From Candidatus Saccharimonadales bacterium (GTDB taxonomy: Bacteria; Patescibacteriota; Saccharimonadia; Saccharimonadales; UBA7683), in contig JAXMAA010000001.1 in NCBI GenBank assembly GCA_046350615.1, positions 8,480 to 72,479 of the forward strand: DNA of 64,000 nucleotides, read 5' to 3'. Below the pieces are notes generated by a model. It searched no databases. It worked only from the letters and a program-made list of their open reading frames with translations, and was not told the origin of the DNA. Positions 7,679 to 44,920 of the stretch are shown piece by piece. Made by a program: the position numbers and the translations under genes. Each line of letters begins with the position of its first letter. Positions within the stretch are counted from its first letter, which is position 1.

Positions 7679-8536
7679 ATGAAAATCAATAAAGTTACGA
7701 AACAACGTAAGCAGTATCCGGCCTATTTGCTGGAAATCTCATCTGTTCCAAAACAGTTATTTTATCTTGGCGAGCCGCCTGAAGCCTATCTGCCTGCAGT
7801 AACCATTGTTGGTAGTCGCAAGCTCTCGCCGTACGGCCGAGAGGTGACGTACCAGTTGGCATACGACCTAGCAAAACAAGGAGTCTCCGTTATTAGTGGC
7901 CTTGCCTTAGGAGCTGACGGAGTGGCGCACCAAGCCGCAATTGATGCTGGCGGCAGAACAATTGCCGTTCTTGCCAATGGGCTCGATGAGATCTACCCGG
8001 CATCGCACCGAAATTTAGCCATTGAGATCTTGAAAAAGGGCGGCACCATCATGAGTGAATACCCAACCGGCACGCCATCACTCAAGCATCACTTCATCGC
8101 TCGTAATCGTATTGTTTCCGGGCTTTCAGATATGGTAATTATCACTGAGGCAGCCGAGGCCAGCGGCTCGCTTGTAACGGCCAATTTTGCGCTTGAACAA
8201 AACAAACTCGTTGGCGCAGTACCGGGCAATATTACCAATCCGCTCAGTATCGGCACTAATACCTTGATAAAAAGTGGTGCTCAGCTTATTACTTCTGCCC
8301 AAGATGTGCTTAATGCACTCGGCATTCAGGCTGAAGAAAAAGTGCGCCAAGAGGTATTTGGAGATACCGCCGAAGAACAAGCAATCATCGACCTTATGAA
8401 GCAAGGTATAACAGAGATGGACCAGCTCCAACAGCAAAGCAATCTCGACCCAGCCATATTCAGCCAAACCCTCACTATGCTCGAAATCTCCGGCAAAATC
8501 CGCCCCTTGGGCGCAGCCCATTGGACACTTAATTAA
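7679..8536 (+). CDS. dprA: DNA processing protein DprA (Smf)
   Basis: GSRKLSPYG...SGLALGADGVAHQAA...IAVLANGLDEIYP...SGSLVTA core with a C-terminal winged-helix-like tail. Confidence 0.9.
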   Translation: MKINKVTKQRKQYPAYLLEISSVPKQLFYLGEPPEAYLPAVTIVGSRKLSPYGREVTYQLAYDLAKQGVSVISGLALGADGVAHQAAIDAGGRTIAVLANGLDEIYPASHRNLAIEILKKGGTIMSEYPTGTPSLKHHFIARNRIVSGLSDMVIITEAAEASGSLVTANFALEQNKLVGAVPGNITNPLSIGTNTLIKSGAQLITSAQDVLNALGIQAEEKVRQEVFGDTAEEQAIIDLMKQGITEMDQLQQQSNLDPAIFSQTLTMLEISGKIRPLGAAHWTLN

Positions 8537-8632
8537 AGCCAGCGCCCAACATGCCGAGTATACCCTGACAACATGTAGAGAAGATCGTCGAACTGTGTCC
8601 GGCAAAACCTTAAGAGTCATGAAGTAACTATT

Positions 8633-9004
8633 TCAACTTAGATATTTCTGTATACGCTGCTGATCTTCACGGTTTTTAACATTCTTAGCGTATAGCTCAA
8701 TAAATGTTACAGTGCCCTCGCTTATGACGGCTATAAATACCAATCGAAGCTTGCCACTCATGGAGCGCGTTTCGGTATCCAATCGCATTTTTATAACTTC
8801 ATGTGTCTGTGACTGGTGTAAGATTGTGGCTCGCTTGCCATCAAAGAACAGTGATCGATATTTTTTGAGCTCCTCATCACCTCCAGACACATATAACTGC
8901 TCTATAAGCGCATAGACGGGTTTTAGATCGGACTTTAGGGTTCGCACCTTCTTGCCAAGTGCTTTTATATCTTTTTTAAACTCCGGGCTCTCATTAAAGT
9001 TCAT
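8633..9004 (-). CDS. Candidate toxin, RelE/ParE-fold-like, partner of the Panacea antitoxin
   Basis: Overlaps the upstream antitoxin gene by 11 nt. The C-terminal pattern KMRLD..SGKLRLVFIAV..EGTVTFIELYAKNVK resembles the RelE/ParE beta-core. Confidence 0.5.
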   Translation of the reverse strand: MNFNESPEFKKDIKALGKKVRTLKSDLKPVYALIEQLYVSGGDEELKKYRSLFFDGKRATILHQSQTHEVIKMRLDTETRSMSGKLRLVFIAVISEGTVTFIELYAKNVKNREDQQRIQKYLS

Positions 9005-9785
9005 CTTCTGGCTCGGTGACAGCAGTTAGTTTGGTACGGTAAAACACATAACGGTAATCTAGAGGTTTGCCCTGACCCGCCACCACCCATGGCGTATCAT
9101 AGTGGGATAGTTCTGTTAACTCCTTGGCCGTCTTGTCACTTAGTCGTGCAAGAGTTTCGTCTATATGTCTGAGTTCGCGTGCAGATAGGCCATCAAATGG
9201 TACTGGTTTTGTTGGCAAGTACTTCTTCTGCTTGTTCTTGAAGAAATTGGTTTCAACAACCTCAAGCTCGCCTTTGGTCTTCATGCCCTCTACGACACTC
9301 TTGAATTCTGCTACAGGTGATGGACCGTAGTGGTTATGAATGTAAGTCAAACCGGTTATGGACTTACCATGTTTTTCGTAGTAATCAAAATCTATGAAGT
9401 ATAGCAGTTTGTATAGAACGGTTTCACCAACATTTGGCTTAGCACCGACTTTTTCCAAAACGTAGGCAAGCACTTCGCGCAATTTATTGTGGTCAACAAT
9501 TTGTATCGTTTCTCTGGGCTCTATACTTGGTTTGCTGAAACTGGTTGGTTCGACAGCTTGTTCTGTCGGTAGCTTACCGGTAATTAAATCTGATGGAGAA
9601 ATCTGATAAAACTCAGCAATGTCGTTAATCTGGCTTAAATCTGGCTGGCGTTTGCCGGCCTCTAAGTTGGCGTAGGTTGCCCGCGCCATGCGTAGTTTAT
9701 TTGCTACGTCTTGCTGGCTCAGGCCAGCATTGTCGCGCAGTGCTGCTATTGTCTTGCTGAAATCCATGAGGAACCTTTCTTTCAT
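8994..9785 (-). CDS. XRE-HTH plus Panacea (DUF4065/SocA-like) domain antitoxin
   Basis: N-terminal HTH LRDNAGLSQQDVANKLRMARATYANLEAGKRQP. C-terminal VLYKLLYFIDFDYYEKHGKSITGLTYIHNHYGPSP is typical of DUF4065. Confidence 0.75.
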   Translation of the reverse strand: MKERFLMDFSKTIAALRDNAGLSQQDVANKLRMARATYANLEAGKRQPDLSQINDIAEFYQISPSDLITGKLPTEQAVEPTSFSKPSIEPRETIQIVDHNKLREVLAYVLEKVGAKPNVGETVLYKLLYFIDFDYYEKHGKSITGLTYIHNHYGPSPVAEFKSVVEGMKTKGELEVVETNFFKNKQKKYLPTKPVPFDGLSARELRHIDETLARLSDKTAKELTELSHYDTPWVVAGQGKPLDYRYVFYRTKLTAVTEPEDEL

Positions 9786-10079
9786 GCCTAATAGTATAGC
9801 TTATGCTACTGTTTTGTGCAATTAATCAGTGCAGAATGTTGACGTCATCTGTTATTTTTGCTATGATTACAATCATACCGACTTATCTGAAATAAAGAGA
9901 ACTTTAACAAACAGATGTCGGGAGGTTTTAAGGAGGGTAACTCCTGACCAAACCAATCACTAGGAATGGCAACGGTGCTGACCCTCGCCAGCACCGCACA
10001 TACAAAGACTGATGACCCTTGTATGCTGCTAATTCTAGCACACATTAACAATTAATGTTTTGCTATAAGGAGTAAAATC

Positions 10080-10325
10080 ATGGCAGCAAACAGACGCGAC
10101 GTTCATGTCGTACCCAACAAATCCTCAGGCCAATTAGACTGGTCTGTAAAGCGTGAAGGCGCGCAACGTTCTAGTGGCACTTATGCCAACAAGGCAGATG
10201 CTTTGGCGGCAGCTCGACAAATTGCCGTTAATAACGGGCTTGAGATGTTCGAGCATGGTAAGAACGGCCAGATACAAAATCGTAACACGTACGGCAAGCA
10301 TGATCCGTACCCACCAAAGGGCTAA
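10080..10325 (+). CDS. DUF2188-like small protein
   Basis: Good SD (AAGGAG at 10067-10072). VHVVPNKSSGQLDWSVKREGAQRSSGTYANKADALAAARQIA fits the DUF2188 pattern. Confidence 0.6.
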   Translation: MAANRRDVHVVPNKSSGQLDWSVKREGAQRSSGTYANKADALAAARQIAVNNGLEMFEHGKNGQIQNRNTYGKHDPYPPKG

Positions 10326-10327
10326 TC

Positions 10328-10537
10328 ATGGAAAAGTTTTGCGTAAACGAGAACGAACAAGATAACGGTGATCACGAGGTACATCGAAGCTGCAGGCGGT
10401 TGCCTAAACCGGAGAACCAAGAATATCTTGGTGAGCTACCAGATAGCTTCAGTGCTATTAAGGAAGCACAACGGCGACATCCCAACTGGCGTATCAACGG
10501 ATGCGCATGGTGTTGCCCCGAAAGCCACACGAGCTAA
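10328..10537 (+). CDS. Small Cys/His-rich protein (DHEVH...C...GC.WCC..H type)
   Basis: Starts 2 nt after the DUF2188 gene. The conserved-looking motif GDHEVHRSC ... INGCAWCCPESH suggests metal binding. Confidence 0.5.
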   Translation: MEKFCVNENEQDNGDHEVHRSCRRLPKPENQEYLGELPDSFSAIKEAQRRHPNWRINGCAWCCPESHTS

Positions 10538-10551
10538 CGGCAGTACAAATT

Positions 10552-10587
10552 AAAAACAGGGTGCGTTTGCGAGGACGCCCTGTTTTT
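10552..10587. terminator. Bidirectional rho-independent terminator between convergent genes
   Basis: 12-bp stem AAAAACAGGGTG / CGCCCTGTTTTT (one G-U pair) with a 12-nt loop. A-run and T-run flanks allow function in both directions. Confidence 0.7.
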
Positions 10588-10598
10588 AGATCAGTGAC

Positions 10599-11240
10599 TC
10601 ACTTAACTTCAATACTCTCACCGTCAGTAAGAAACACAAATTCTCGGGCTGAATCAATACTGTTCACAACAAAGTTGTGTGTTACTTTATGCCCGTTGTC
10701 GCTATTCAGACCATTGTGTGTAGGAATAACAATGTCGGAATCAACTGCATTGGCGAACTCAATACACTCTGAGACTTTGAACCATGGCCCCGAGGTTGGC
10801 AAGGCAAGAACCTTCACCTTCGTATCAATAGTCTTGTACGAATCACTTGGGTAGTACAGTGCGTCGCCATCTACCATAATAGCCAGGGACTTACAAGGTG
10901 ATTTTTGGTATACCACTGCATGATCGGTTTCACTGAACGCGACCTCAAAAGCACCGAGCGATATAGTCTTATCGCCCGTTACGGCGTGTGTATGCAGGTC
11001 TGCGTCTTTCAGCTTCTCTTGTACGGCTGTGGTGGTATAGATTTGTACGTCTGGATTAGCGCGAGCAACCATTTCGAGATTGTCAGGGTTGAAGTGGTCG
11101 TAATGCTCTTCGGTCACAATCACGAAGTCTATCTTTGGCAGACCGGCCGGTAGTTCAGTAAACGAGCCTGGGTCAATGAGCATATACGCACTATCTTTTT
11201 CGAGTAGCAGGCAGGCGTGGCCGTATTTAGTGAGCTTCAT
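10599..11240 (-). CDS. MBL-fold metallo-hydrolase
   Basis: MKLTKYGHACLLLE... and VIVTEEHYDHF (HxHxDH-like) are typical of the small YtkL/UlaG-like MBL fold. Confidence 0.75.
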   Translation of the reverse strand: MKLTKYGHACLLLEKDSAYMLIDPGSFTELPAGLPKIDFVIVTEEHYDHFNPDNLEMVARANPDVQIYTTTAVQEKLKDADLHTHAVTGDKTISLGAFEVAFSETDHAVVYQKSPCKSLAIMVDGDALYYPSDSYKTIDTKVKVLALPTSGPWFKVSECIEFANAVDSDIVIPTHNGLNSDNGHKVTHNFVVNSIDSAREFVFLTDGESIEVK

Positions 11241-12192
11241 AGGCCTCCTTGAGTTCTTGCTTTGCCACTGGTTGAACCCCCCGTTTATGAAACTGCAACG
11301 TACCAGCTAGAATAGCTTGCTGAGCAGCCTCGCTGATTGCCGCTCCATCCTGCAGGAGCGCACAGAGAGCAGCCATCGTTTGATCACCGCACCCTGTTTC
11401 GTCTTTTTCGCCGGATGCTTTGATATCAGGGATTGCAATATGCGTCTGTATGTCGTTTGTAAATAAATAGGCTCCGTTCACACCCGCAGTTATAAGAATA
11501 TTCTCAACACCTTGTTCGCGTAATTTTTGGGCAGCTTTTTTAGCAGTTTCAAAGTCAGTAACCTCAATACCAGTTAGTATTTTTGCCTCATGTTCGTTTG
11601 GTTTCATTAGGTAGATGCCGGCTGCTATAAGCTCACTTAATTCTGTAGTAGCTTCAATGCCTCCTGGATCAAACATTACTTTCAGGCAATGCTTGTTTGC
11701 TAGTTGAACCGCATAAGTGGCTGTTTTTAGCGGACACTCCAAGGTCAAGACTAGAGTTCCGTTGTTCGTTGCGACGATTTCAAATAGTTCAGAGGCGGCG
11801 TCAATATCGTCTGTACTAAAGTCGTCACTCACGCCAGGCAGCACAAAAATCTGGTTATTACCATGCTGATCTACTGGTATGAGAGCAATTCCTGGCAGCT
11901 TATTCACTAGCTCATACTCAAGCACATTTACATAATCAGTATTAACACCAATTTTTGCTAATGCGTCCATCGGCTGCCGCCACAAACCGTAAGGATCTTC
12001 TACGGTTCGGCCAACCATGGCAACGCTATTTTCTGATGCAAGGTGAGCAATCATGTCAGCGATATTACGTGACTTACCGCCCGGGCCGATTAACAGTTCT
12101 TTGCCATATACGTGTTCGCCTGGTTTTGGAAATTGCGTAATACCCGTTGCCACGAGATCAGTGTTGAGCGAGCCGATGACTATGGTTTTCAT
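11227..12192 (-). CDS. PfkB-family carbohydrate/nucleoside kinase (ribokinase-like)
   Basis: GSLNTDLV, GPGGKSRN, and C-terminal DETGCGDQTMAA (the DTxGAGD-type motif). Confidence 0.85.
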   Translation of the reverse strand: MKTIVIGSLNTDLVATGITQFPKPGEHVYGKELLIGPGGKSRNIADMIAHLASENSVAMVGRTVEDPYGLWRQPMDALAKIGVNTDYVNVLEYELVNKLPGIALIPVDQHGNNQIFVLPGVSDDFSTDDIDAASELFEIVATNNGTLVLTLECPLKTATYAVQLANKHCLKVMFDPGGIEATTELSELIAAGIYLMKPNEHEAKILTGIEVTDFETAKKAAQKLREQGVENILITAGVNGAYLFTNDIQTHIAIPDIKASGEKDETGCGDQTMAALCALLQDGAAISEAAQQAILAGTLQFHKRGVQPVAKQELKEAYEAH

Positions 12193-12470
12193 TTCTCTAC
12201 TTCCTCAAGCAATGAAATAATCTGATAGCCATATTTGTCGATATCCTCTTTGTTCCAGAAGTCAAAGTCTTTTGTTTTGCCTACAAAACCTACTTTTCGC
12301 TTTAGGGTGCGACCAGTTGGTTGTTTTGTGTTCTCATCAATCTCAACCAGTACGAGAATATCCCCTTGACTGCACTCCCAGTCAGCTAGGCGTAGCTCGT
12401 AGGTCTTTTCTCCAGTCTCAATCTTGTCGAAATACTCAGGCAAGATTTTCTTTTCAATTAGTTTACTCAT
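12189..12470 (-). CDS. ASCH-superfamily protein (DUF3850-like)
   Basis: KKILPEYFDKIETGEKTYELRLADWECSQGDILVLVE matches the DUF3850/ASCH N-terminal pattern. Overlaps the kinase gene by 4 nt. Confidence 0.6.
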   Translation of the reverse strand: MSKLIEKKILPEYFDKIETGEKTYELRLADWECSQGDILVLVEIDENTKQPTGRTLKRKVGFVGKTKDFDFWNKEDIDKYGYQIISLLEEVEK

Positions 12471-12511
12471 CTCTATGATTATACCTTAACTCTCGAACAA
12501 AATATCCTGTT

Positions 12512-13300
12512 CTACTCCTCCACAAACCCCACCGGCAACTCGTGGTAAACGGGTTCCTCATCCCAATCCACTTCCATTGGTCGCAGCCAGATATCCTTTT
12601 CACCGCCGAGGAGGCGTTCTTCAGTGGTGGTGAATAGTTCAGAGTCCCAGAGCAAGTCAGTCGACATCTTAATAATTCGTTTTTCAGTACTATTGTTGCC
12701 GGCAACCAGCAGTAGGTAGGGATAGCGGTACTCCGCTTCCTCATCAGCATAGTCAATATGTTGGTTAATACGTTTACGAATAGTCCAGCTTTGTTCACCA
12801 GCGGGGATGTATTCCATAAAGAGTTCAGGAGTATCCTCAGCGTCTGGGGCGAATAACAGCCAGGGCATGGGGTTCAGATAGTCTTCGGGGTCAAGCTGGT
12901 ATTTGGTATACGTACGGTACATCTGCGGGTAGTTGCGGTGAATAGCTCGGCTAAACTTCGGGTAGCGGTAGTATTCATCTATCTGCGGTTCAGTGAAGTC
13001 TTTGTTCTTGTAGTGTAGTTGGGTACGGGCTACGCACTGGGCTTTTAAGTAGCGTATGCCAGCTGGGGCTAAGTAGTAGGTTGCTGGTCGTCTATCTATA
13101 CGGTACGTATTACTGTACTTCTTTGCTGCATATCCTTGGTCTACGAGTACTGCTAATCTCTCGTATATTGTTGATCTATCTTTATGTAGTAGGTCTGCTA
13201 GTAGATCGGTTGTTAAGAATCGGTATTTCAGTAACGTGTGTAATATCGAAGTTTGTGAACTGCTAATCTTATATCTTGCTCTTGTCTCCGCACGCCGCAT
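12512..13300 (-). CDS. Replication-relaxation family protein (plasmid/ICE-type wHTH)
   Basis: N-terminal ILHTLLKYRFLTTDLLADLLHKDRSTIYERLAVLVDQGY winged-helix pattern of the replication-relaxation family. Confidence 0.55.
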   Translation of the reverse strand: MRRAETRARYKISSSQTSILHTLLKYRFLTTDLLADLLHKDRSTIYERLAVLVDQGYAAKKYSNTYRIDRRPATYYLAPAGIRYLKAQCVARTQLHYKNKDFTEPQIDEYYRYPKFSRAIHRNYPQMYRTYTKYQLDPEDYLNPMPWLLFAPDAEDTPELFMEYIPAGEQSWTIRKRINQHIDYADEEAEYRYPYLLLVAGNNSTEKRIIKMSTDLLWDSELFTTTEERLLGGEKDIWLRPMEVDWDEEPVYHELPVGFVEE

Positions 13301-13394
13301 GTATTTTTTCTCCTATATGTATATATAAAAGAAGAGAAAGTAAAAGTAAAGAATTAACAGAGGTGATAGCAAGAATAAAATACCATGTGCTTAG

Positions 13395-14456
13395 TGGGGA
13401 TTTTAGACTACCCTGGAAGCTCGTATTGTAGGAGTGCGCTATACTGTTTGGTATGGCAAAACAACCCCGTGAATGACGATCAACGCAGATTTCTTGATAA
13501 CCTGCCGGATGATCAGGTAAATGAGAATGCTGAGCAAAAGCTCGACAAAGCTATTGCACGCGCCGCGCAGCAGTCGCAATCAAAACAGGAAAAACCGGAA
13601 CCTGCCGATGGTTATAGCGATATACAAACTCGTTCAGATACAGCTGGAGATACTTCCGACTAACGCAGTGATAAGTACCATCCATGGAGCGTTTCAGTTG
13701 TGACCAAAAGCCCTCAATAGTGTTGGTATGCACGGCTCCACGACCATACTCACCAATACTGTGATTCACGCTATCGTGGTAGTAGCCGATACGGTGCACC
13801 GTTCGGTAGACTCGAGCCTGGTCGCTATATACCACTGAGCCAGGTGCTATGCCAGACTGCAAGCGTGGCAGTAGTACCCGAGCGCCAGCACTGCGCACAT
13901 GTTCGGCTTTGACTTTACCACCACGTTCGACCATACCAAAGACAATGGCTTTATTCTGCACGGTGACATTCTTGCCCCGTTCACGGCCGCCTATGTAGGT
14001 TTCATCAGTTTCAACAATGCCAGACAAAGAAGTGTTGCTATCGAGCATCAAGGTGCGTACCTGCTTGGCAATCCGCCAAGCAGTTTTGTAGGTCACGCCC
14101 AGATGGCGTTCCACTTCTTTGGCCGAGACGCCGTTCTTAGCGACTGAGAACAAGAAGATGACGTAGAACCAGTCTTTCAGCGGTGTCGACGACTTATGGA
14201 AGATGGTATTAGCTAACGGATGAATCTGATTACCACAGTCTTTACACTCGTAGCACTTACGATTCCGAACTCGGTAATAGCTGGGATCAGCGACCCCGCA
14301 CTTGGGGCAAGCGGGCATCTGTCCATAGGCCAGGTCAAACATATATTCCAAACAAGCAGTATCATCTGGGAAGCGTTCGTTGAATTGCTTAACCGTAAAC
14401 CTCATACTTACAGTGTATCACAGAGGTTACATGTTGTAAAGGGATAATCGTCCCCA
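13395..14456 (-). mobile_element. IS1595-family insertion sequence (ends uncertain)
   Basis: Contains the transposase gene. Only a weak candidate terminal inverted repeat was found (TGGGGA at 13395, TCCCCA at 14451), and no target-site duplication was found. Confidence 0.45.
13551..14405 (-). CDS. IS1595-family (ISXO2-like) DDE transposase with N-terminal zinc ribbon
   Basis: CPKCG...CKDCG zinc ribbon, HTH GVSAKEVERHLGVTYKTAWR, VETDETYIGG and the later D/E positions typical of IS1595. Confidence 0.85.
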   Translation of the reverse strand: MRFTVKQFNERFPDDTACLEYMFDLAYGQMPACPKCGVADPSYYRVRNRKCYECKDCGNQIHPLANTIFHKSSTPLKDWFYVIFLFSVAKNGVSAKEVERHLGVTYKTAWRIAKQVRTLMLDSNTSLSGIVETDETYIGGRERGKNVTVQNKAIVFGMVERGGKVKAEHVRSAGARVLLPRLQSGIAPGSVVYSDQARVYRTVHRIGYYHDSVNHSIGEYGRGAVHTNTIEGFWSQLKRSMDGTYHCVSRKYLQLYLNEFVYRYNHRQVPVFPVLIATAARRVQ

Positions 14457-14499
14457 ACATTAATTGATTATTTTTAATATACATGTTTAAATATAATTT

Positions 14500-15627
14500 A
14501 TGTACCGGCCAAGTGCTACATATGAATTTGCTCAAATAGACGAACCTCTCGAAATTGAACCAACGGTATTTCGAAGCTCTGTATTTGGCCAAGATGAACC
14601 ATACTCAGATGCTCTTATTAACTCGCTCTCTTTTAGCAAGGGGGCTTTTAAGCCAGAAACAATTCTATATGTTGAGGGTCGAAACTACTTTGTAGATCTT
14701 CAGGATAGAGCTAGGGGAGTATATGATACATTACAAGTTTCCGGTGCGGGGTATATTCAACCCTCTCAAGCCAGAAACGCACACAATGGCTTAATTATTA
14801 CAACCGCAGCGACTGGTGTGCAAGTTATACAACCACCCCAACCATATCATGATGGATCTGCGTTGTATGCACACATCACTGATTACTACGATCCCTCTGA
14901 AGAATCTCTGCTCCGTAAAGTCGTTGATCACTCACCGATGGGCGGCTATGCACATGACCTAGCAATTCGCAAGTGGGTGCATATGCGTAAAGCGGAAAGG
15001 TTATTTGCTGATAGTAATGTACTGGTTCCACTTTGTCAGGGCTACGTTGACTTTCCGCAGGTCGTTGACCAACTGGGTGAATCACAGCGTGGCATAATTT
15101 CACTCGTTCCAAATAAAGGGAACCGCCTGAACCGCGACCTCACTCCATTGTTGGGTTACGTTGATAGCCCCAGCAAAGCTGGTAGATACTACAGTGATAT
15201 TGTTGCAAAGAAGATGTATGCCACAGGGCTTGCAGCAGCTACGGTGCATGCGTCAGGTCTGGTGCACAACCAACTCACAGCCGGCAACGTTGACCCCTCC
15301 TTTACTAGACAAGATGGTTCAGATGTAGTTTTTGTGGCTGACTGGGAAACTCCGACTGAAATTATCCCAGAAGACGACCTACAAATGCGCGCACTTGATG
15401 TTATGAAGACTATCAGATCACTCACTTCAATAGCGATTAGAGCGGCAGAAATGGGCAATGCAGGGTTTTGGTCCGGCTTGGCAGCACAACAGGCTATTGA
15501 TATTTTATGCGGATACAACAATATAGAGAGCTTTGACTTTAAAGAAGATACCATTGAGAGAATCTCGCAGGTCATAGATGGTGGATCACGAGCAGGAGTT
15601 ATGGCTACTGCTTCATTTTTGGCATAA
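14500..15627 (+). CDS. Hypothetical protein with protein-kinase-like/APH-like C-terminal motifs
   Basis: HASGLVHNQLTAGNV (in the position of HGDLhxxN) followed by VFVADWE (like IDWE/DFG). The catalytic Asp position is Gln. Confidence 0.4.
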   Translation: MYRPSATYEFAQIDEPLEIEPTVFRSSVFGQDEPYSDALINSLSFSKGAFKPETILYVEGRNYFVDLQDRARGVYDTLQVSGAGYIQPSQARNAHNGLIITTAATGVQVIQPPQPYHDGSALYAHITDYYDPSEESLLRKVVDHSPMGGYAHDLAIRKWVHMRKAERLFADSNVLVPLCQGYVDFPQVVDQLGESQRGIISLVPNKGNRLNRDLTPLLGYVDSPSKAGRYYSDIVAKKMYATGLAAATVHASGLVHNQLTAGNVDPSFTRQDGSDVVFVADWETPTEIIPEDDLQMRALDVMKTIRSLTSIAIRAAEMGNAGFWSGLAAQQAIDILCGYNNIESFDFKEDTIERISQVIDGGSRAGVMATASFLA

Positions 15628-15703
15628 TTTGCAAATTTATGACAGCTCGTGTATCTTTTATTGCTGTTGCATTTGAAACTTAAATGCATACACTGGAATA
15701 AGC

Positions 15704-18088
15704 ATGAGCAAAAATAATCTTGTTATTGTAGAGAGCCCGGCTAAGGCGAAAACTATCGAGAAGTATCTTGGTAGTGACTTTAAAGTGATGTCTTCGGTTG
15801 GGCACATCCGTTCAATTGCCAAAAAAACTAAAGATGGCAAAGAGGCAATTGATGTAAAAAACGGTTTTGAAACTGTATACGAGATTGATCCGGATAAAAA
15901 GAAGGTCATCACCGAGCTAAAAAAAGCCGTCAAAGAAACGCAGGCTGTTTGGCTAGCAACTGATGAAGACCGTGAGGGTGAGGCAATTGCCTGGCATTTG
16001 TGTGAGGTCCTGAAACTTGATCCGAAGACCACCAAGCGGATTGTGTTTCATGAAATCACCAAAGGAGCGATTGAAGAGGCGATTAAAAATCCGCGGTACG
16101 TAGATATGAACCTCGTACATGCCCAGCAAGCACGGCAGATTTTAGATAGGATCGTTGGCTTTGAGCTCTCACCAGTCGTCTGGCAGAAGGTGCCAGGTGG
16201 TAAATCTGCTGGCCGAGTGCAATCACCGGCTGTTCGATTGCTTGTGGAGCGTGAGCGTGAAATTGAAAGTTTTGAAGGTAGCTTTCAGTTTAAAGTTACT
16301 GCTGAGTTTATGCATAATGGCGACCTTGTTAAGGCCGAGCTACCACAGCGTTTTGATACCGAAAAAGAGGCTCAAGAGTTCTTAGAAAGCCTCAAAAACG
16401 CTTCATTTACAGTAGGTAGCGTTGAAACTACTCCTGGCACTCGTAACCCTTCAGCGCCGTTCACTACCAGCACCCTGCAGCAAGATGCCAACAGTAGGCT
16501 CGGTTTTAGCGCCAAAGCCACCATGGCAGCCGCCCAGAAGCTTTACCAAGAGGGTAAAATCACCTACATGCGTACTGATTCGGTCAATCTAAGCAGCCAA
16601 GCTTTGGCCCAAATGACTGAGTTTATCAAAAAAGAGTACGGCGAGAAGTATCATCAATTCAGAACCTTCAAAACCAAGAATTCGAGCGCACAGGAGGCTC
16701 ACGAAGCCATACGCCCAACAGATGTGAAAACCACCTCTGCCAGTAGTGATAGCTACAACCAGAAGCTCTACGAACTAATCCGAAATCGCACCCTAGCAAG
16801 CCAGATGGCGCCTGCTAAACTGGAAAAGACTACAGTGAGCATTATAATTTCAACCAGCAAATACATCTTTGAAGCTAAAGGTGAGGTGATTTTATTTGAT
16901 GGCTTCCTGAGAGTATATGGCGGCAGCAAAAAAGACCCTGAGATTTTACCAGCACTCGTTGCGGACGATCGGCTGGAGCTAGAAATTGCATCTGCTCGCC
17001 AAATATTTGCCCGTCCACCAGCACGCTACACCGAAGGCTCGCTGGTTAAAAAACTTGAAGATCTTGGCATCGGCCGCCCATCCACCTACGCTACGATCAT
17101 CAATACAGTACAAGTACGAGGCTATGCAGAAAAAGGTGAAAGTGAAGGCGAACCACGCGATGCAATCGTTTTATCATACGTGCCATCCGGTCATTCTGAA
17201 CTTGTTTCAGGATCTACAAACGCCCAAGAGCAGATTCCGAAACAAGTTCGGAATGGCATCGTGCGTGAAGTTGTGCAAGAAAAAACCGGCTCAGATAGGG
17301 GCAAACTAGTACCGACTGCTGCTGGAAAAGTTCTCAACAACTTTCTAGTAGATCACTTTGACCAAGTGGTAGACTATGGTTTTACGGCTGCTGTAGAGGA
17401 AGAATTTGATCAAATTGCTGCTAATAAGTTGGCTCGTAATAAGATGTTAAACGAGTTTTATGATCCGTTTCACAAATTGATTGAAAACTCCGGCAGCATT
17501 GACCGCTCAACTGTCGCCCAAGCACGCGAGATAGGGGTACACCCTAAAACCGGAAAACCGATTTTAGCTCGATTTGGACGCTTTGGCCCCATGCTGCAGC
17601 ACGGTGCGACTGAAGATAAAGAGGCAAAACCGCAATTTGCGCCCCTTCCAAAAGGCGCAAAGCTTGAAACCGTCACGCTCGAGGAGGCCCTAAAAGCCTT
17701 CGAGCTGCCGCGAACCGTTGGCCAAACTGAAGATGGCAAAGAAATCAAAGCGAATATTGGCCGTTTTGGGCCTTATATTCAAGTGGAGAAGCTGTTTGTA
17801 AGTATTAAACCACTCGACCCGCACACAATCACACTCGAGGAGGCAAAAGAGCTCTACGCCGCTAAATTAAAGGCTGAGGCAGAGAAAAATATTGCCGATT
17901 TTGGCGATGGTATCAAAGTGTTAAACGGACGGTTCGGCCCCTACATAACCGACGGTACCAAAAATGCCAAAATTCCAAAAGACACCGACCCCAAGAAGGT
18001 TACCCACGAAGAAGCCAAAAAGCTCCTCGCCGAAGCCCCAGCAAAAGGCAAGCGCACCTTCAAGCGCCGTACTTCTAAAAAGAAATGA
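15704..18088 (+). CDS. topA: DNA topoisomerase I
   Basis: TOPRIM LVIVESPAKAKTIEKYLG, DEDREGE, active-site YMRTDS. The C-terminus has three GRFGPY-type repeats and a basic tail instead of Cys4 zinc fingers. Ends with TGA. Confidence 0.95.
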   Translation: MSKNNLVIVESPAKAKTIEKYLGSDFKVMSSVGHIRSIAKKTKDGKEAIDVKNGFETVYEIDPDKKKVITELKKAVKETQAVWLATDEDREGEAIAWHLCEVLKLDPKTTKRIVFHEITKGAIEEAIKNPRYVDMNLVHAQQARQILDRIVGFELSPVVWQKVPGGKSAGRVQSPAVRLLVEREREIESFEGSFQFKVTAEFMHNGDLVKAELPQRFDTEKEAQEFLESLKNASFTVGSVETTPGTRNPSAPFTTSTLQQDANSRLGFSAKATMAAAQKLYQEGKITYMRTDSVNLSSQALAQMTEFIKKEYGEKYHQFRTFKTKNSSAQEAHEAIRPTDVKTTSASSDSYNQKLYELIRNRTLASQMAPAKLEKTTVSIIISTSKYIFEAKGEVILFDGFLRVYGGSKKDPEILPALVADDRLELEIASARQIFARPPARYTEGSLVKKLEDLGIGRPSTYATIINTVQVRGYAEKGESEGEPRDAIVLSYVPSGHSELVSGSTNAQEQIPKQVRNGIVREVVQEKTGSDRGKLVPTAAGKVLNNFLVDHFDQVVDYGFTAAVEEEFDQIAANKLARNKMLNEFYDPFHKLIENSGSIDRSTVAQAREIGVHPKTGKPILARFGRFGPMLQHGATEDKEAKPQFAPLPKGAKLETVTLEEALKAFELPRTVGQTEDGKEIKANIGRFGPYIQVEKLFVSIKPLDPHTITLEEAKELYAAKLKAEAEKNIADFGDGIKVLNGRFGPYITDGTKNAKIPKDTDPKKVTHEEAKKLLAEAPAKGKRTFKRRTSKKK

Positions 18089-18818: not shown

Positions 18819-19868
18819 TTGCAAGAGGAAGTTATGGAACAGACAACCAATCTCGACATCAAGAAGGCAGCCAAGGAAATCTTGGAGACAATTGAGCGTG
18901 ATCGCGAACGCGAAATCATTGCCCGTCGATTTGGTCTGTATGACCGAAAAGAAACCCTCGAACAGATTGGCGAACTTCTCGGTATTACCCGTGAACGGGT
19001 TAGACAGCTTGAAAAGGCTATTCTTATTCGCCTGAAGATTGCTGCCGAGAAGGGTGAACTTCCGCACATGCAGGAAGTTGAGAAAGAATTTATCAAGCAG
19101 CTTTCTGAAATGGGCCGAGTTGCTCGTGTCAGTGATCTTGCTGAAAAAGTAGGGGATACCGGCGACGAACGAGATCGTGCACATGTGGCTTTTCTCGCAA
19201 CGCTCGCGCCCAAGCTTTCAGTACTGGATGAAAACGATGATTATCATCAAGCAGTCGCTATCAAAGAGCACTACGATGAAAAAACCTTAAGAGATCGTGT
19301 CTCTGACATTGTGAAGACCATCAAAACTCACGGCCAGCCACTGACTATTACTCAACTCCACGAGAAGGTCAGCGGCTACGAACACCCAGACCACGTTCGC
19401 GCGATCGCAAGTGCCAGCAAGAATCTTGCAAACCTGAAAGACCAGTGGGGTCACATAAAATGGCCACTAGTTAATCCGAAGAATATTCGTGATAAGATCT
19501 ACGTAATTTTGCAGGAAAACGAAAAGCCCATGCACTTTTCTGAAATCTCCGAAAAAATCAAAGATTCTGATTTTAAGCGCAAAGACGTTACTACTCAGGC
19601 TATTCATAACGAGCTCATTAAAGATGCTCGTTTTGTATTAATTGGCCGCGGTATCTATGCCCTCAAAGAATGGGGCTACAGCAAGGGAACCGTATCTGAT
19701 ATCATCACCAAAATCTTGAAGAAATCGAAAGAGCCAATGCACCGCGACGACATCGTCCGTGAGGTCCTCAAGAGCCGCCAGGTAAAAGAAACGACCATTC
19801 TACTTAACCTCCAGGGCAAGCCACAGTTCAAACGAGTGGCAAAAGCCACCTACGAACTCGCTGAGTAG
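18819..19868 (+). CDS. Sigma-70 region-4-like HTH plus HARE-HTH domain protein
   Basis: IIARRFGL..TLEQIGELLGITRERVRQLEKAIL (sigma r4), then MHFSEISEKI...IGRGIYALKEWGY (HARE-HTH, RpoE-delta-like). The start may be the ATG at 18834. Confidence 0.7.
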   Translation: MQEEVMEQTTNLDIKKAAKEILETIERDREREIIARRFGLYDRKETLEQIGELLGITRERVRQLEKAILIRLKIAAEKGELPHMQEVEKEFIKQLSEMGRVARVSDLAEKVGDTGDERDRAHVAFLATLAPKLSVLDENDDYHQAVAIKEHYDEKTLRDRVSDIVKTIKTHGQPLTITQLHEKVSGYEHPDHVRAIASASKNLANLKDQWGHIKWPLVNPKNIRDKIYVILQENEKPMHFSEISEKIKDSDFKRKDVTTQAIHNELIKDARFVLIGRGIYALKEWGYSKGTVSDIITKILKKSKEPMHRDDIVREVLKSRQVKETTILLNLQGKPQFKRVAKATYELAE

Positions 19869-20769: not shown

Positions 20770-21181
20770 ACAAATGCAGCATATGCCGTCATTCTTGACT
20801 TGATTAGGGGCGTAGTTAGCACGATATACCGTAAACTCGAAATACTAAAAATACGATCAAAACACAGTAGTGTAGACAAAATACGAACATTATCGTTGTC
20901 TGTGATTGTAAGCTCTAAGCACGGAAGCATGTTCGTTAGCACAATAATTCAAACACTCGCACTAAATCCGCTGTGGCATGTCGGTCAATTGTAAATGTAC
21001 AAAATACGAACATTCAATAACGGTATCGTGGGGCGTGGAACCAAAATACGGCATACATTAAATCTCAAATATACAAGGTACGGTAGGTGATGAGAACGCA
21101 AATCAAGAACATGTAAGCAAAACGAGATTATTAAGCATAAGAAAGATGAGTGCGCATATGCGACTTTGAGATGGTATCGTA

Positions 21182-21209
21182 ATGTCGCACAATGTATATT
21201 TTGCGACAT
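21182..21209. other. Candidate dif-like Xer recombination site (11-6-11)
   Basis: ATGTCGCACAA-TGTATA-TTTTGCGACAT. The arms are inverted repeats matching at 10 of 11 positions. The central hexamer equals the E. coli dif spacer TGTATA. The site lies in a gene-free convergent zone. Confidence 0.4.
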
Positions 21210-21645
21210 ATAATAAATCTCCCCCTGGTGGGCGCAAGTTACTCCCCAGCAGGGGACTTTCTGCAGGTATGCCACTAAAAAACGCCTCCATCCACCCGTA
21301 AACTTACTTTAAATCTGCCGGTATCCGTGCAGCCGCTACACCACGTGATGCACTCTACAACCGCACACTAATTTGACTTTTCCACAATACCTTGTGAAAA
21401 GTTGCATTTTTGACATTTTCATGCCGCAATGTTTTTATACTGCTCTCTCCCCTCCATCATGTGGTTTTTGCATAATTTGCTTTTTTCTATTTTTATATGT
21501 TTTATAGACTTTTTTCAGAAATAAAACACTCGAACAAAATACGAACATGAAGAGAAGAGAGGAAAGCGTGGTTCGTGGTTCGTTCTAATTATGGCCGCTC
21601 CGTCATGTTTTCATGAACGGCTTACAACCCACCAAGCTAAACTCC

Positions 21646-22581
21646 CTATTTATAGAATGCTTTGTGCGGCGTCCGTAAATCAATATACTCAGCAGGCGTG
21701 ATATTCTTGGCCTTAAGATAGCCCAGCAACGAGCCCAACTCCCCTACTTGCTCCGGAAGTGGCCGTGTAGAACTAAGCTTAACAATATAGGCCTGCGAGC
21801 TTAACTGTACCTGCACTTCTCTTGTTGAACGTGGCACAATAACTCGGCTAACCTTTACATCACCACCTCCGTATACGGATGGTATCTGATTATGTAGTTG
21901 GCCGATAAACTGAATGAGTTGTGTGCTCAAAACTGATGCTCCTGCATCAAGCGCCACACCACTTTGATCTTCAATCTGGGTCAGTCTATTAATTTGTACA
22001 CTGGGGTCGAGGTTTCTAGAAAATAATACACCGTTTGCATCGACAAATTGCTGTGTGTTACTTACATCCTTCCACACAAAAACTGGCTTTCTGAAACGAA
22101 CGTCAACCTTCAGCGCGGCACTAATGGGGGCCGTTTGAGAAACTTCAAGCCACTGTATCTCCGGATACTGCTTTGTTATAGCACTCTTCAGGCCCGCCTC
22201 ATCTAGCAGCCAAGACTGTCCTAAAACTGTATGTTCGTGGTATGCGCGCAGTATACTCGCTTGATACTGATCCGCGAGTTCAGTTGTCAGTTTGGTCGAA
22301 GCATTACTGCGTAACTGCACTCTTGTAATCTGCATTCGATAGCCCAACGCTACAATAAGGCATAGACCCACTAGGGCGAGTGTTCTATTACGAACAATCC
22401 GGCGAGCGAGTAGTTTTTTACGATCCTGTTGCCTCTGGGTTACAGACTGTTGCCGTGCTGCCATTTCACGCTGCGAACGGGAAATAACCACATTGTTACG
22501 CCTAAACACCTCACCAATACCAGCCTTTGGCTGACGTGTACGTACTGATGCAAATGATTGTTCTTTTTTTTTGCGAAACAT
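21646..22581 (-). CDS. ftsQ: Cell division protein FtsQ/DivIB-like (TM plus POTRA)
   Basis: Basic N-terminus, one TM segment (LALVGLCLIVALGY), a POTRA-like segment, and a position directly after murG. Confidence 0.7.
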   Translation of the reverse strand: MFRKKKEQSFASVRTRQPKAGIGEVFRRNNVVISRSQREMAARQQSVTQRQQDRKKLLARRIVRNRTLALVGLCLIVALGYRMQITRVQLRSNASTKLTTELADQYQASILRAYHEHTVLGQSWLLDEAGLKSAITKQYPEIQWLEVSQTAPISAALKVDVRFRKPVFVWKDVSNTQQFVDANGVLFSRNLDPSVQINRLTQIEDQSGVALDAGASVLSTQLIQFIGQLHNQIPSVYGGGDVKVSRVIVPRSTREVQVQLSSQAYIVKLSSTRPLPEQVGELGSLLGYLKAKNITPAEYIDLRTPHKAFYK

Positions 22582-40979: not shown

Positions 40980-41282
40980 CTACGCTCGATCTTTCCATGC
41001 TTGATCACGAAGCTGTTCAATCTCTTCAACCAAAAGTGGCGCAATACCTCGCTCTTTGCGATGTTTCTGCACCTTTTTTTGCAGTCGCTCAAACTCTACC
41101 CAATAGTCATCTTTCTCCAAAATTATCTGGCCCTTAACTTCTTTCACGCGCAGCCTATCAGATGTAGAAATACCAAGTTTTCTGCGAATAGTCACCGGCA
41201 CAGTTACCTGACCCTTGCTCGTAATTGTTGTGCTAAATGTTTTCATAGGTATTACTTTATCAAAAGTAATACCTAATGTCAA
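40980..41282 (-). CDS. vapB: AbrB/SpoVT-type antitoxin VapB
   Basis: TITSKGQVTVPVTIRRKLGI motif; 3 nt upstream of vapC. Confidence 0.8.
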   Translation of the reverse strand: MTLGITFDKVIPMKTFSTTITSKGQVTVPVTIRRKLGISTSDRLRVKEVKGQIILEKDDYWVEFERLQKKVQKHRKERGIAPLLVEEIEQLRDQAWKDRA

Positions 41283-44659: not shown

Positions 44660-44920
44660 TTATGGGAGCTCACTGCAACGAACATCATGCTCCTTTTGTT
44701 GCCCTACACTATCAGCAGGTTGGATCTCGGGCACTTTACCAGTATGATGAATCTTGCGTGATAATTCAGGGTCTAATACCAAAGGTAATCCCGAGTTTGC
44801 TGTGGTATCAGCAAACTCCACCAGTGCACCCGCAACCGCCGTGGCAGCCAAAGCCTGTGCTTCTCGCAAATCATGTAATTCTTTATCGGCACCGTCATTT
44901 GCTTTTTCTACTGTTGGCAT
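44660..44920 (-). CDS. Hypothetical small protein
   Basis: ORF only; lies upstream of, and in the same orientation as, 44064-44627. Confidence 0.35.
   Translation of the reverse strand: MPTVEKANDGADKELHDLREAQALAATAVAGALVEFADTTANSGLPLVLDPELSRKIHHTGKVPEIQPADSVGQQKEHDVRCSELP

Follow-up and report, generated by a model that had tools for sequence, protein, structure and literature searches.

The window analysed in this study is a stretch of 64,000 nucleotides (64 kb) from contig JAXMAA010000001.1 of a Candidatus Saccharimonadales bacterium, and the subject is a palindromic 28-bp element, a candidate dif-type recombination site, located in a non-coding gap of 876 bp between two converging runs of genes. 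The run to the left of the site lies on the plus strand and includes topA, a gene coding for a protein with sigma70 region 4 and HARE-HTH domains, and open reading frames (ORFs) of 204 and 76 amino acids (aa). The run to the right lies on the minus strand and represents the dcw cluster, in which ftsQ borders the gap and is followed by murG, ftsW, mraY and a penicillin-binding protein gene; 36 of the 42 genes to the right of the site in the window are on the minus strand. The FtsQ protein is 100% identical to one from a metagenome-assembled genome of Candidatus Saccharimonadales (locus tag U0520_00190), which marks the window as chromosomal DNA of a Saccharibacterium (TM7; Patescibacteria/CPR). 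The first-pass annotation had described the place as a gene-free zone between convergent genes, and this description holds. The site is overlapped by ORFs, but a coding role was rejected, since these ORFs are not conserved as proteins between the window and a related locus, L002.

The sequence of the element is ATGTCGCACAATGTATATTTTGCGACAT on the plus strand, letter for letter as first annotated (coordinates of this and other features are listed in Table 1). It consists of two 11-bp arms, ATGTCGCACAA and TTTTGCGACAT, separated by the 6-bp centre TGTATA. The arms form inverted repeats complementary at 10 of 11 positions, the sole mispair being C at position 9 against T at position 20, so that the architecture proposed earlier was confirmed in the sequence. 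The element has the length and form of dif sites (about 28-31 bp, inverted arms of about 11 bp and a centre of 6-11 bp), and the inner palindrome used as a criterion by Kono et al. (2011, PMC3025954) is present, with five of six pairs formed between positions 7-12 and 17-22. The window contains a single copy, even when three mismatches are allowed, and shuffled sequences are expected to contain none.

Scanning of metagenome contigs with an FtsQ profile gave 41 loci. In L002, with an FtsQ 56% identical to that of the window, the gene order is the same and the 28-mer is identical, and most of the intergenic DNA has diverged. The exact 28-mer is also kept in L003, L007, L008, L011 and L012 (FtsQ identity in the six loci, 42-58%), and relatives with FtsQ identity down to 24% carry the site with one to four changes in the arms. 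Conservation in relatives had been suggested as a check, and the 28-mer is indeed retained, exactly or nearly so, in 33 independent loci selected by ftsQ, always about 0.3-0.55 kb beyond the ftsQ stop codon and in a single orientation. The core shared by these relatives is GTCGCACAAT-N5-TTTTRCGAC. Half of the 28 positions (14) are invariant and six more vary in one or two loci only. Every invariant column of the 33-sequence alignment falls within the 28-mer; conservation drops sharply outside of it and the flanks are unconserved, the conserved block being discrete, with a length of 24-28 bp. Most of the variation affects the centre, where TGTATA, TATATC and TGTACC occur among other hexamers, position 22, which is G or A, and the two outermost bases of each arm. 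Relatives never lose the asymmetry between C at position 9 and T at position 20.

A wider search was performed with a 20-base pattern, GTCGCACAATNTANNTTTTNCGAC, for which about one match is expected by chance in the collection of species-representative genomes. The pattern matched at least 120 species genomes, and among the matches listed there were 120 different assemblies, with one match per stretch. They belong to Saccharibacteria, Paceibacterota/Parcubacteria, and Nomura-, Campbell-, Kaiser-, Shapiro-, Woese-, Morani- and Berkelbacteria. Each fetched locus contains one full site, and so does the 64-kb window; this copy number is given per locus. The site represents a discrete DNA element, and its conservation extends across Patescibacteria. 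Preferential ending of contigs at the site, a sign of structural variation, was considered for the 120 listed genome contigs and rejected, since 16 of them end within 1 kb of it against 12 expected, which is not significant; two contigs, L004 and L061, end exactly at the site.

A conserved palindrome between convergent genes could also act as a protein operator or as an RNA hairpin, for example a 3'-end or stability element of the convergent transcripts, with no role in recombination. In favour of such a function are the 12-bp stem with a 4-nt loop, a conserved terminator-like GC hairpin with a T-run located 35-60 nt after the site on the plus strand, a TATAAT-like hexamer directly adjoining the palindrome in the window and in L002, and the observation, made by inspection, that most of the arm changes would still form G-U pairs on the ftsQ-sense strand. 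However, no covariation was found on the plus strand: none of the measures exceeds the shuffle mean, and of the pairs in the stem one is formed in no sequence and another is lacking in 17 of 32. A terminator is contradicted by the lack of a T-run behind the stem, whichever strand is read, and the terminator scan scored no such site. As for structured RNAs, scanning of the window with Rfam gathering thresholds revealed tRNA only, and a permissive scan of the gap gave matches at chance level. The neighbouring genes differ between lineages, so that there is no common regulated gene, and with the site downstream of both neighbours, which vary by lineage, an operator for a transcription factor is unlikely. 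An operator or hairpin also leaves unexplained the recombination junctions found exactly at the site, described below, and this explanation is therefore regarded as very improbable. By inspection, the palindrome and the neighbouring repeats fit neither a DnaA box nor parS, CIRCE, an NrdR box or a LexA box.

The connection of the site with recombination is suggested, first, by its linkage to a gene of the Xer family of tyrosine recombinases. Eight loci of the Pace- and Woesebacteria type, selected by the pattern, contain a full-length xer gene at a distance of 0.3-1 kb from the site (L074, L103, L104, L105, L123, L126, L133 and L137). The order yebC, gene for a 255-aa membrane protein, site, xer is found in the five of them with a readable left flank (L074, L105, L126, L133 and L137), and gyrA is convergent with xer in L103, L104, L105 and L123. 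The proteins of L104, L105 and L133, the three that were scanned, contain Phage_integrase and SAM_1 domains. Their scores are about 242-249 bits against both the XerC and the XerD models of NCBIfam, short of the equivalog cut-off of about 330 bits; with the archaeal XerA model they reach 206-218 bits (cut-off 220) and with the XerS model only 124-132 bits (cut-off 267). The match of the site-adjacent Xer to the XerH structure is likewise weak (E 4e-12), and the best solved relative of the L105 protein is E. coli XerD (1A0P, E 1e-39). Since the scores against XerC and XerD are equal and below the cut-off, the protein belongs to the Xer family but is not assignable to either of the two. The family consensus keeps the motifs GLRVSEL, HTLRHSFAT and LGH...TTQIYTH, which we take to be the catalytic signature known from XerD. 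Members are 72-89% identical across many clusters, as fits a housekeeping gene, and are named XerC or XerD by their sources.

The linkage was also found in the reciprocal direction. Three family members picked by Xer alone (P0109, P0111 and P0101) all have a full site 1.1-1.5 kb upstream of the gene, with centres (TATTAC, TAATAC) that could not have matched the pattern used in the scan. Among the records analysed, nine are labelled as Gammaproteobacteria, Pseudomonadales or Bdellovibrionales (L055, L070, L074, L078, L095, L103, L104, L108 and L126), and a Vitreimonas label also occurs among the oddly labelled ones. At least in L074, L103, L104 and L126, and in the contigs of P0101 and P0111, the Patescibacterial site is found in a Pacebacteria-type gene context at 32-49% GC; because of the site and this context the labels of these records are probably wrong. 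In L074 the order of yebC, membrane protein gene, site and xer is the same as in L137, but the asymmetric site (2987-3010 of L074) is inverted relative to its neighbours, so that in this lineage the site can face either way with respect to the flanks. Many close cluster representatives of the Xer family (P0211, P0216, P0218 and others) have a length of 650-750 aa and comprise two Xer-like halves, looking like tandem fusions.

Second, junctions of inserted elements were found at the site in Saccharibacteria. The pattern matched 56 stretches in a collection of viral contigs, 17 of which are fragments of low-GC Saccharibacteria chromosomes carrying ftsQ (sometimes with murG) and the site and flagged as viral. 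In six loci from low-GC, oral-type Saccharibacteria (L188, L198, L200, L213, L215 and L220) the full site is separated from a hybrid copy, arranged as a direct repeat, by an insert of about 5.3-5.9 kb (2195-7631 in L200). Over GTCGCACAAT and the centre the hybrid copy is identical to the full site, and beyond them its sequence is unrelated (TTTTTTGTGCG or AAGTAGGAACA, for instance). Both copies have the same centre, TATACC in L188 and TATATC in the other five loci. The L200 insert, the only one annotated, encodes a Zot-like ATPase (PF05707, phrog_197) and a rolling-circle Rep protein (PF23343, Rep ORF2/G2P, phrog_3419). When all viral loci were screened by tblastn with Xer and integrase sequences as queries, no tyrosine recombinase was revealed in the six loci. 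Based on the presence of Zot and rolling-circle Rep and the lack of a recombinase, the L200 insert appears to be an inovirus-like prophage; the Candidate Phyla Radiation is reported to harbour inoviruses (PMC6813254). The absence of a recombinase from the inserts also indicates that the enzyme is presumably supplied by the host. In L198, L200 and L220 the chromosomal flanks are 92-95% identical up to both sites, whereas the interiors are only about 70-77% identical, and different elements therefore occupy the same two boundaries, as in cassette exchange.

An integrase-less element enclosed by a full and a hybrid site was thus found in six Saccharibacteria relatives and not in the window. The 64 kb of the window contain no second or hybrid copy, and its site is therefore unoccupied. 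As read from the sequences of their boundaries, the inserts indicate that recombination takes place at the site in Saccharibacteria. Beside the left arm of both site copies a region of about 400 bp is homologous (about 75% identity) and occurs in mosaic combinations, for which no explanation is offered.

Taken together, the conservation, the Xer linkage and the integration junctions make it probable, with good confidence, that the 28-mer serves this Saccharimonadales chromosome as its dif-type site. The two 11-bp arms would be bound by a tyrosine recombinase of the Xer family, with strand exchange across the 6-bp centre, and in the host this reaction would be expected to convert chromosome dimers to monomers at division. 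In Saccharibacteria the acting enzyme would be a Xer homologue. The nearly symmetric arms may be served by one undifferentiated Xer instead of a XerC/XerD pair, and in the integration of elements the invariant left arm would carry the subunit performing the productive strand exchange. A single-recombinase system had been proposed from the symmetry of the arms in the first-pass annotation. The idea is plausible, as the site-adjacent Xer scores equally as XerC and XerD and nearly reaches the XerA cut-off, but with scores below the XerC and XerD cut-offs its class stays unassigned.

Several results weigh against this identification and concern the likeness to known sites, the nucleotide composition and the recombinase itself. 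The 28-mer is identical to E. coli dif (GGTGCGCATAATGTATATTATGTTAAAT; Kono et al. 2011, PMC3025954) at 19 of 28 positions, to B. subtilis dif at 17 and to the dif of Frankia alni at 14, a marginal similarity, and the best background 28-mer of the window matches E. coli dif at 18 of 28 positions, only one fewer than the candidate. The E. coli sequence had been given correctly in the first-pass annotation, but the claimed resemblance of the left arm to the E. coli XerC arm is not supported, the match being just 6 of 11. The centre is identical to the E. coli hexamer, as stated, but this is specific to the lineage; relatives have TATATC as often as TGTATA, and the identity is therefore a lineage coincidence. 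Palindromes of the 11-6-11 form with at least 10 of 11 complementary positions number four in the window against 0.47 in shuffled sequences. The three others are listed in Table 1; the one beginning at 41247 is perfect (AGGTATTACTT TATCAA AAGTAATACCT).

Palindromy and likeness to E. coli dif by themselves are weak evidence. The four comparable palindromes and the match to E. coli dif just one position above background could be taken to indicate a chance palindrome with an accidental dif likeness, and on these grounds the observation acquires meaning through the comparative evidence only. That evidence refutes coincidence, which is left with hardly any probability, since dozens of distant relatives have the exact sequence or its core in the corresponding position, and it occurs in at least 120 genomes.

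Composition of the DNA around the site does not show the pattern of a replication terminus, although the arrangement of genes does. Gene runs converge on the site in 81-83 of the 84 loci with enough flank, including lineages with different neighbours. In CP064960.1 (1,322,297 bp), the only complete genome among the listed matches, the site is at 643,564, or 48.7% of the record as counted from its first base. Megabase contigs with xer and the site start at arbitrary positions; in two assemblies of one genome xer lies about 68% and about 9% along. The GC skew was measured at third codon positions (GC3 skew) in genes of both orientations in order to separate strand effects from coding effects. 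The plus-strand GC3 skew in the window amounts to -0.17 for the 12 plus-strand genes to the left of the site, -0.21 for the 36 minus-strand genes to the right and -0.16 for the six plus-strand genes to the right. The only class differing in sign, with +0.09, consists of the six minus-strand genes to the left, belonging to an island that bears an insertion sequence. The GC3 skew of the window thus holds one sign through the site, over 21 kb to the left and 43 kb to the right, and the intergenic skew is slightly negative on either side. In three other loci, selected by xer, the GC3 skew is positive in all four classes of side and orientation within 10 kb in both directions, and a positive skew to the left combined with a negative one to the right is seen in only 8 of 83 loci.

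The skew reversal that had been proposed as a check of the terminus is therefore not present at the site in the window or in the three other genomes. The claim of a terminus agrees with the gene orientation but not with the GC3 skew, which keeps its sign across the site. Given the uniform strand bias, the skew switch of this genome must be situated beyond 21 kb on the left or beyond 43 kb on the right. A distance of tens of kilobases separates dif from the skew switch or the fork trap in E. coli and B. subtilis, so that the lack of a switch within 10-40 kb is not decisive. According to Kono et al., termination takes place near dif and not at dif (PMC3025954). For these reasons the skew result leaves the terminus unconfirmed, not refuted.

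Regarding the recombinase, tblastn with XerD over the whole window detected no Xer gene (about 25 of the approximately 55 ORFs were outside the Pfam scan), and no tyrosine recombinase gene was found in the fetched Saccharibacteria loci. A single-protein search with the site-adjacent Xer returned only close relatives of the Pacebacteria type and no Saccharibacterial Xer. In a profile search one family member (P0374) was labelled as Candidatus Saccharimonadales, which is a database label only, of a kind that is unreliable elsewhere. The contig of P0374 (L231) has no full site within 10 kb. At 9955-9964 of L231, 25 bp upstream of the xer start codon, it contains the exact left-arm 10-mer GTCGCACAAT, for which about 0.02 chance matches are expected in this locus; this sequence may be an autoregulatory half-site.

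The lack of a skew reversal also speaks for an alternative in which the site is a genuine target of a tyrosine recombinase with a main role other than the resolution of dimers at the terminus, such as attachment of mobile elements, unloading of chromosome-organising complexes or local regulation. XerA-like integrases, different from the Xer described above, adjoin the site in L114 and L146, and the L114 type recurs at 81% identity in a viral contig, L172. The 56 matches in viral contigs, some of them complete sites, and the tight linkage of the site to the end of the dcw cluster in Saccharibacteria and many Paceibacterota point in the same direction. Nevertheless, a site used for attachment of elements only would not be expected to stay nearly invariant across a superphylum in insert-free genomes, and the window carries neither a second nor a hybrid site. 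In addition, the adjacent Xer is a highly conserved core-type gene located between yebC/DUF5656 genes and gyrA, outside of any element. A main role of this kind is accordingly held to be unlikely, though less so than an operator or hairpin, and a dif-type site remains the preferred identification.

Complete two-arm sites are present on viral contigs (L209, L218, L223, L173, L177, L196, L203, L210 and L211), usually with TATACA or TCTACA as the centre, and no recombinase was detected on these contigs. The annotated one, L209, has genes for a primase, a helicase and an endolysin. Such sites may be phage- or plasmid-borne Xer sites serving the resolution of multimers or integration.

The surroundings of the site contain other recurrent elements. 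The 12-mer AAAATACGAACA, extended as the 16-mer ACAAAATACGAACATT, is enriched 33-fold within 700 bp of the site across loci, with 0.36 copies per kb against 0.011 elsewhere. In the window three copies, of the form AAAATACGA[A/T]CA, lie on the left-arm side and a fourth on the right-arm side. Copies are also found in L002, L003 and many other Saccharibacteria loci, at about -180 to -320 and +340 to +520 relative to the site, the latter copy being recurrent in many of them. Nearly all have the same orientation on both sides of the site, unlike FtsK-orienting motifs, which converge. These repeats may represent an accessory or regulatory element tied to the site by position only.

Beyond the site, the hairpin listed in Table 1 consists of CCCC, a loop and GGGG, followed by ACTTTC. 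It recurs in many relatives, where the stem and loop vary and (C)AGGGGA[C/G]TTT is constant, and looks like an intrinsic terminator of the plus-strand genes, although a simple terminator scan gave it no score. A block of about 65 nt beginning with ATTTGACTTTTCCACAATACCTTGTGAAAAGTTGCATTTTTGACATTTTCATGCC is nearly identical in the window and L002 in spite of the divergence of FtsQ. It includes an inverted repeat (TTTTCCACA / TGTGAAAA) and TTGACA-like hexamers and matched no Rfam family. On the side of the site opposite to ftsQ, at 0.3-1.5 kb, nearly all of 39 Saccharibacteria loci (including L005, L015-L017, L021-L028 and L036) encode an ATPase with a length of about 850-970 aa and an N-terminus that appears hydrophobic; the window, L002 and L003 have no such gene at this place. 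The domains of the ATPase are DUF87/HerA and TrwB_AAD_bind (DUF8128 in one annotation), and it does not match the Pfam family FtsK_SpoIIIE.

Further to the left the window contains a variable island between dprA and topA, which L002 does not have. It codes for an HTH/SocA-Panacea antitoxin-like protein, a protein with a metallo-beta-lactamase fold, a PfkB kinase, a TrmB/Replic_Relax-like protein, an IS1595-family transposase and a 375-aa protein without a Pfam match; all of the island genes except that for the last protein are on the minus strand. The GC3 skew of the six minus-strand island genes measured is opposite to that of the surrounding genes.

Table 1. Position of the candidate dif-type site and of other features in the 64-kb window.
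Feature	Position	Strand	Remarks
Core site, ATGTCGCACAA + TGTATA + TTTTGCGACAT	21182-21209	+	sequence, uniqueness, conservation
Phylum-wide conserved core of the site	21184-21207	+	comparison across Patescibacteria
Left arm, core GTCGCACAA nearly invariant	21182-21192	+	position counts; kept with the centre in hybrid sites
Centre (putative crossover region), TGTATA	21193-21198	+	most variable part; relatives T[G/A/C]TA[T/C/G/A][A/C/G]
Right arm, TTTTGCGACAT	21199-21209	+	G or A at position 22 in relatives; replaced by unrelated sequence in hybrid sites
Gap between convergent gene runs	20770-21645		non-coding
topA	15704-18088	+	left run
sigma70-r4/HARE-HTH gene	18819-19868	+	left run
ftsQ	21646-22581	-	right run, dcw cluster
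AAAATACGA[A/T]CA motif, three copies	20848-20859, 20878-20889, 21001-21012 (span 20848-21014)	+	left-arm side; repeat enrichment
AAAATACGAACA, fourth copy	21536-21547	+	right-arm side, just past the ftsQ stop codon; same orientation as the left copies
Hairpin CCCC-loop-GGGG	21243-21262	+	about 35-60 nt after the site
Block of about 65 nt	21371-21438		nearly identical in L002
Variable island	about 8100-15650		between dprA and topA
Further 11-6-11 palindromes	41247-41274, 16-43, 44792-44819

Comparison with known systems revealed both common and distinct features. With the XerCD/dif system of E. coli and the CodV-RipX/dif system of B. subtilis the site shares its length of 28 bp, partly symmetric 11-bp arms, a 6-bp centre and a non-coding location between converging gene runs. 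It differs in having GTCGCACAA and TTTTRCGAC in the arms in place of the widely conserved inner ATAA...TTAT, in the near symmetry of the arms, in a linked recombinase assignable neither to XerC nor to XerD, and in the absence of a skew reversal. In archaea, one recombinase, XerA, acts on a highly conserved 28-bp site (PMC5357621, PMC2958812). The scores of the site-adjacent Patescibacterial Xer fall slightly below the XerA cut-off, the hosts here are bacteria, and the best solved relative is XerD of E. coli. The XerS/difSL system of streptococci and lactococci and the XerH/difH system of Helicobacter and Campylobacter resemble the genomes of the Pace- and Woesebacteria type in that xer lies beside the presumed site, and the nearly symmetric arms would suit a single recombinase. 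However, difSL has a length of 31 bp with an 11-bp centre, against 28 and 6 bp here, and, in contrast to both systems, Saccharibacteria including the window have no adjacent xer.

Integrase-less elements of the CTX-phi and VGJ-phi type are known to leave one intact and one hybrid site at dif (reviewed in PMC5357621). The inserts of Saccharibacteria resemble CTX-phi, VGJ-phi, TLC-phi and the gonococcal genetic island in lacking an integrase and in being bounded by a host site and by a copy with one good arm, the centre and a degenerate arm; the difGGI and attP sites presented in the same review are similar to the hybrid copy found here. In distinction from these integrative mobile elements exploiting Xer, the hosts here are ultrasmall episymbionts, the inserts are known from their sequences, and the region of about 400 bp beside the left arm is duplicated as well.

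No description of dif or Xer in Saccharibacteria or other Patescibacteria was found in the searchable literature. The existence of a dif site in these bacteria is what a specialist would expect; what is new is the defined consensus, the prophages integrated at the site and the mismatch with GC skew. A more specific proposal, tentative and rather less likely than not, is that the site represents a distinct Patescibacterial variant of dif with the consensus RYGTCGCACAAT-N5-TTTTRCGACRY, acted upon by one undifferentiated, XerA-like recombinase and anchored at a conserved boundary of convergent genes (in Saccharibacteria, where the dcw cluster ends) and not at a compositional terminus, with AAAATACGAACA repeats in one orientation as accessory elements and filamentous phages exploiting the site.

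If the identification of the 28-mer as a dif-type site is correct, it would provide a dif consensus for the Candidate Phyla Radiation and would allow the segregation terminus to be marked in fragmentary metagenome-assembled genomes. The use of one or two recombinases for dimer resolution in tiny genomes would become testable, and the end of replication could be compared directly with the point of gene convergence. Integrase-less, apparently filamentous prophages of oral Saccharibacteria would become identifiable together with their attachment sites. With genetic tools for this group just emerging (PMC10633639), these attachment sites could be adapted for site-specific integration, as a sequence-defined platform for episymbionts that are hard to manipulate.

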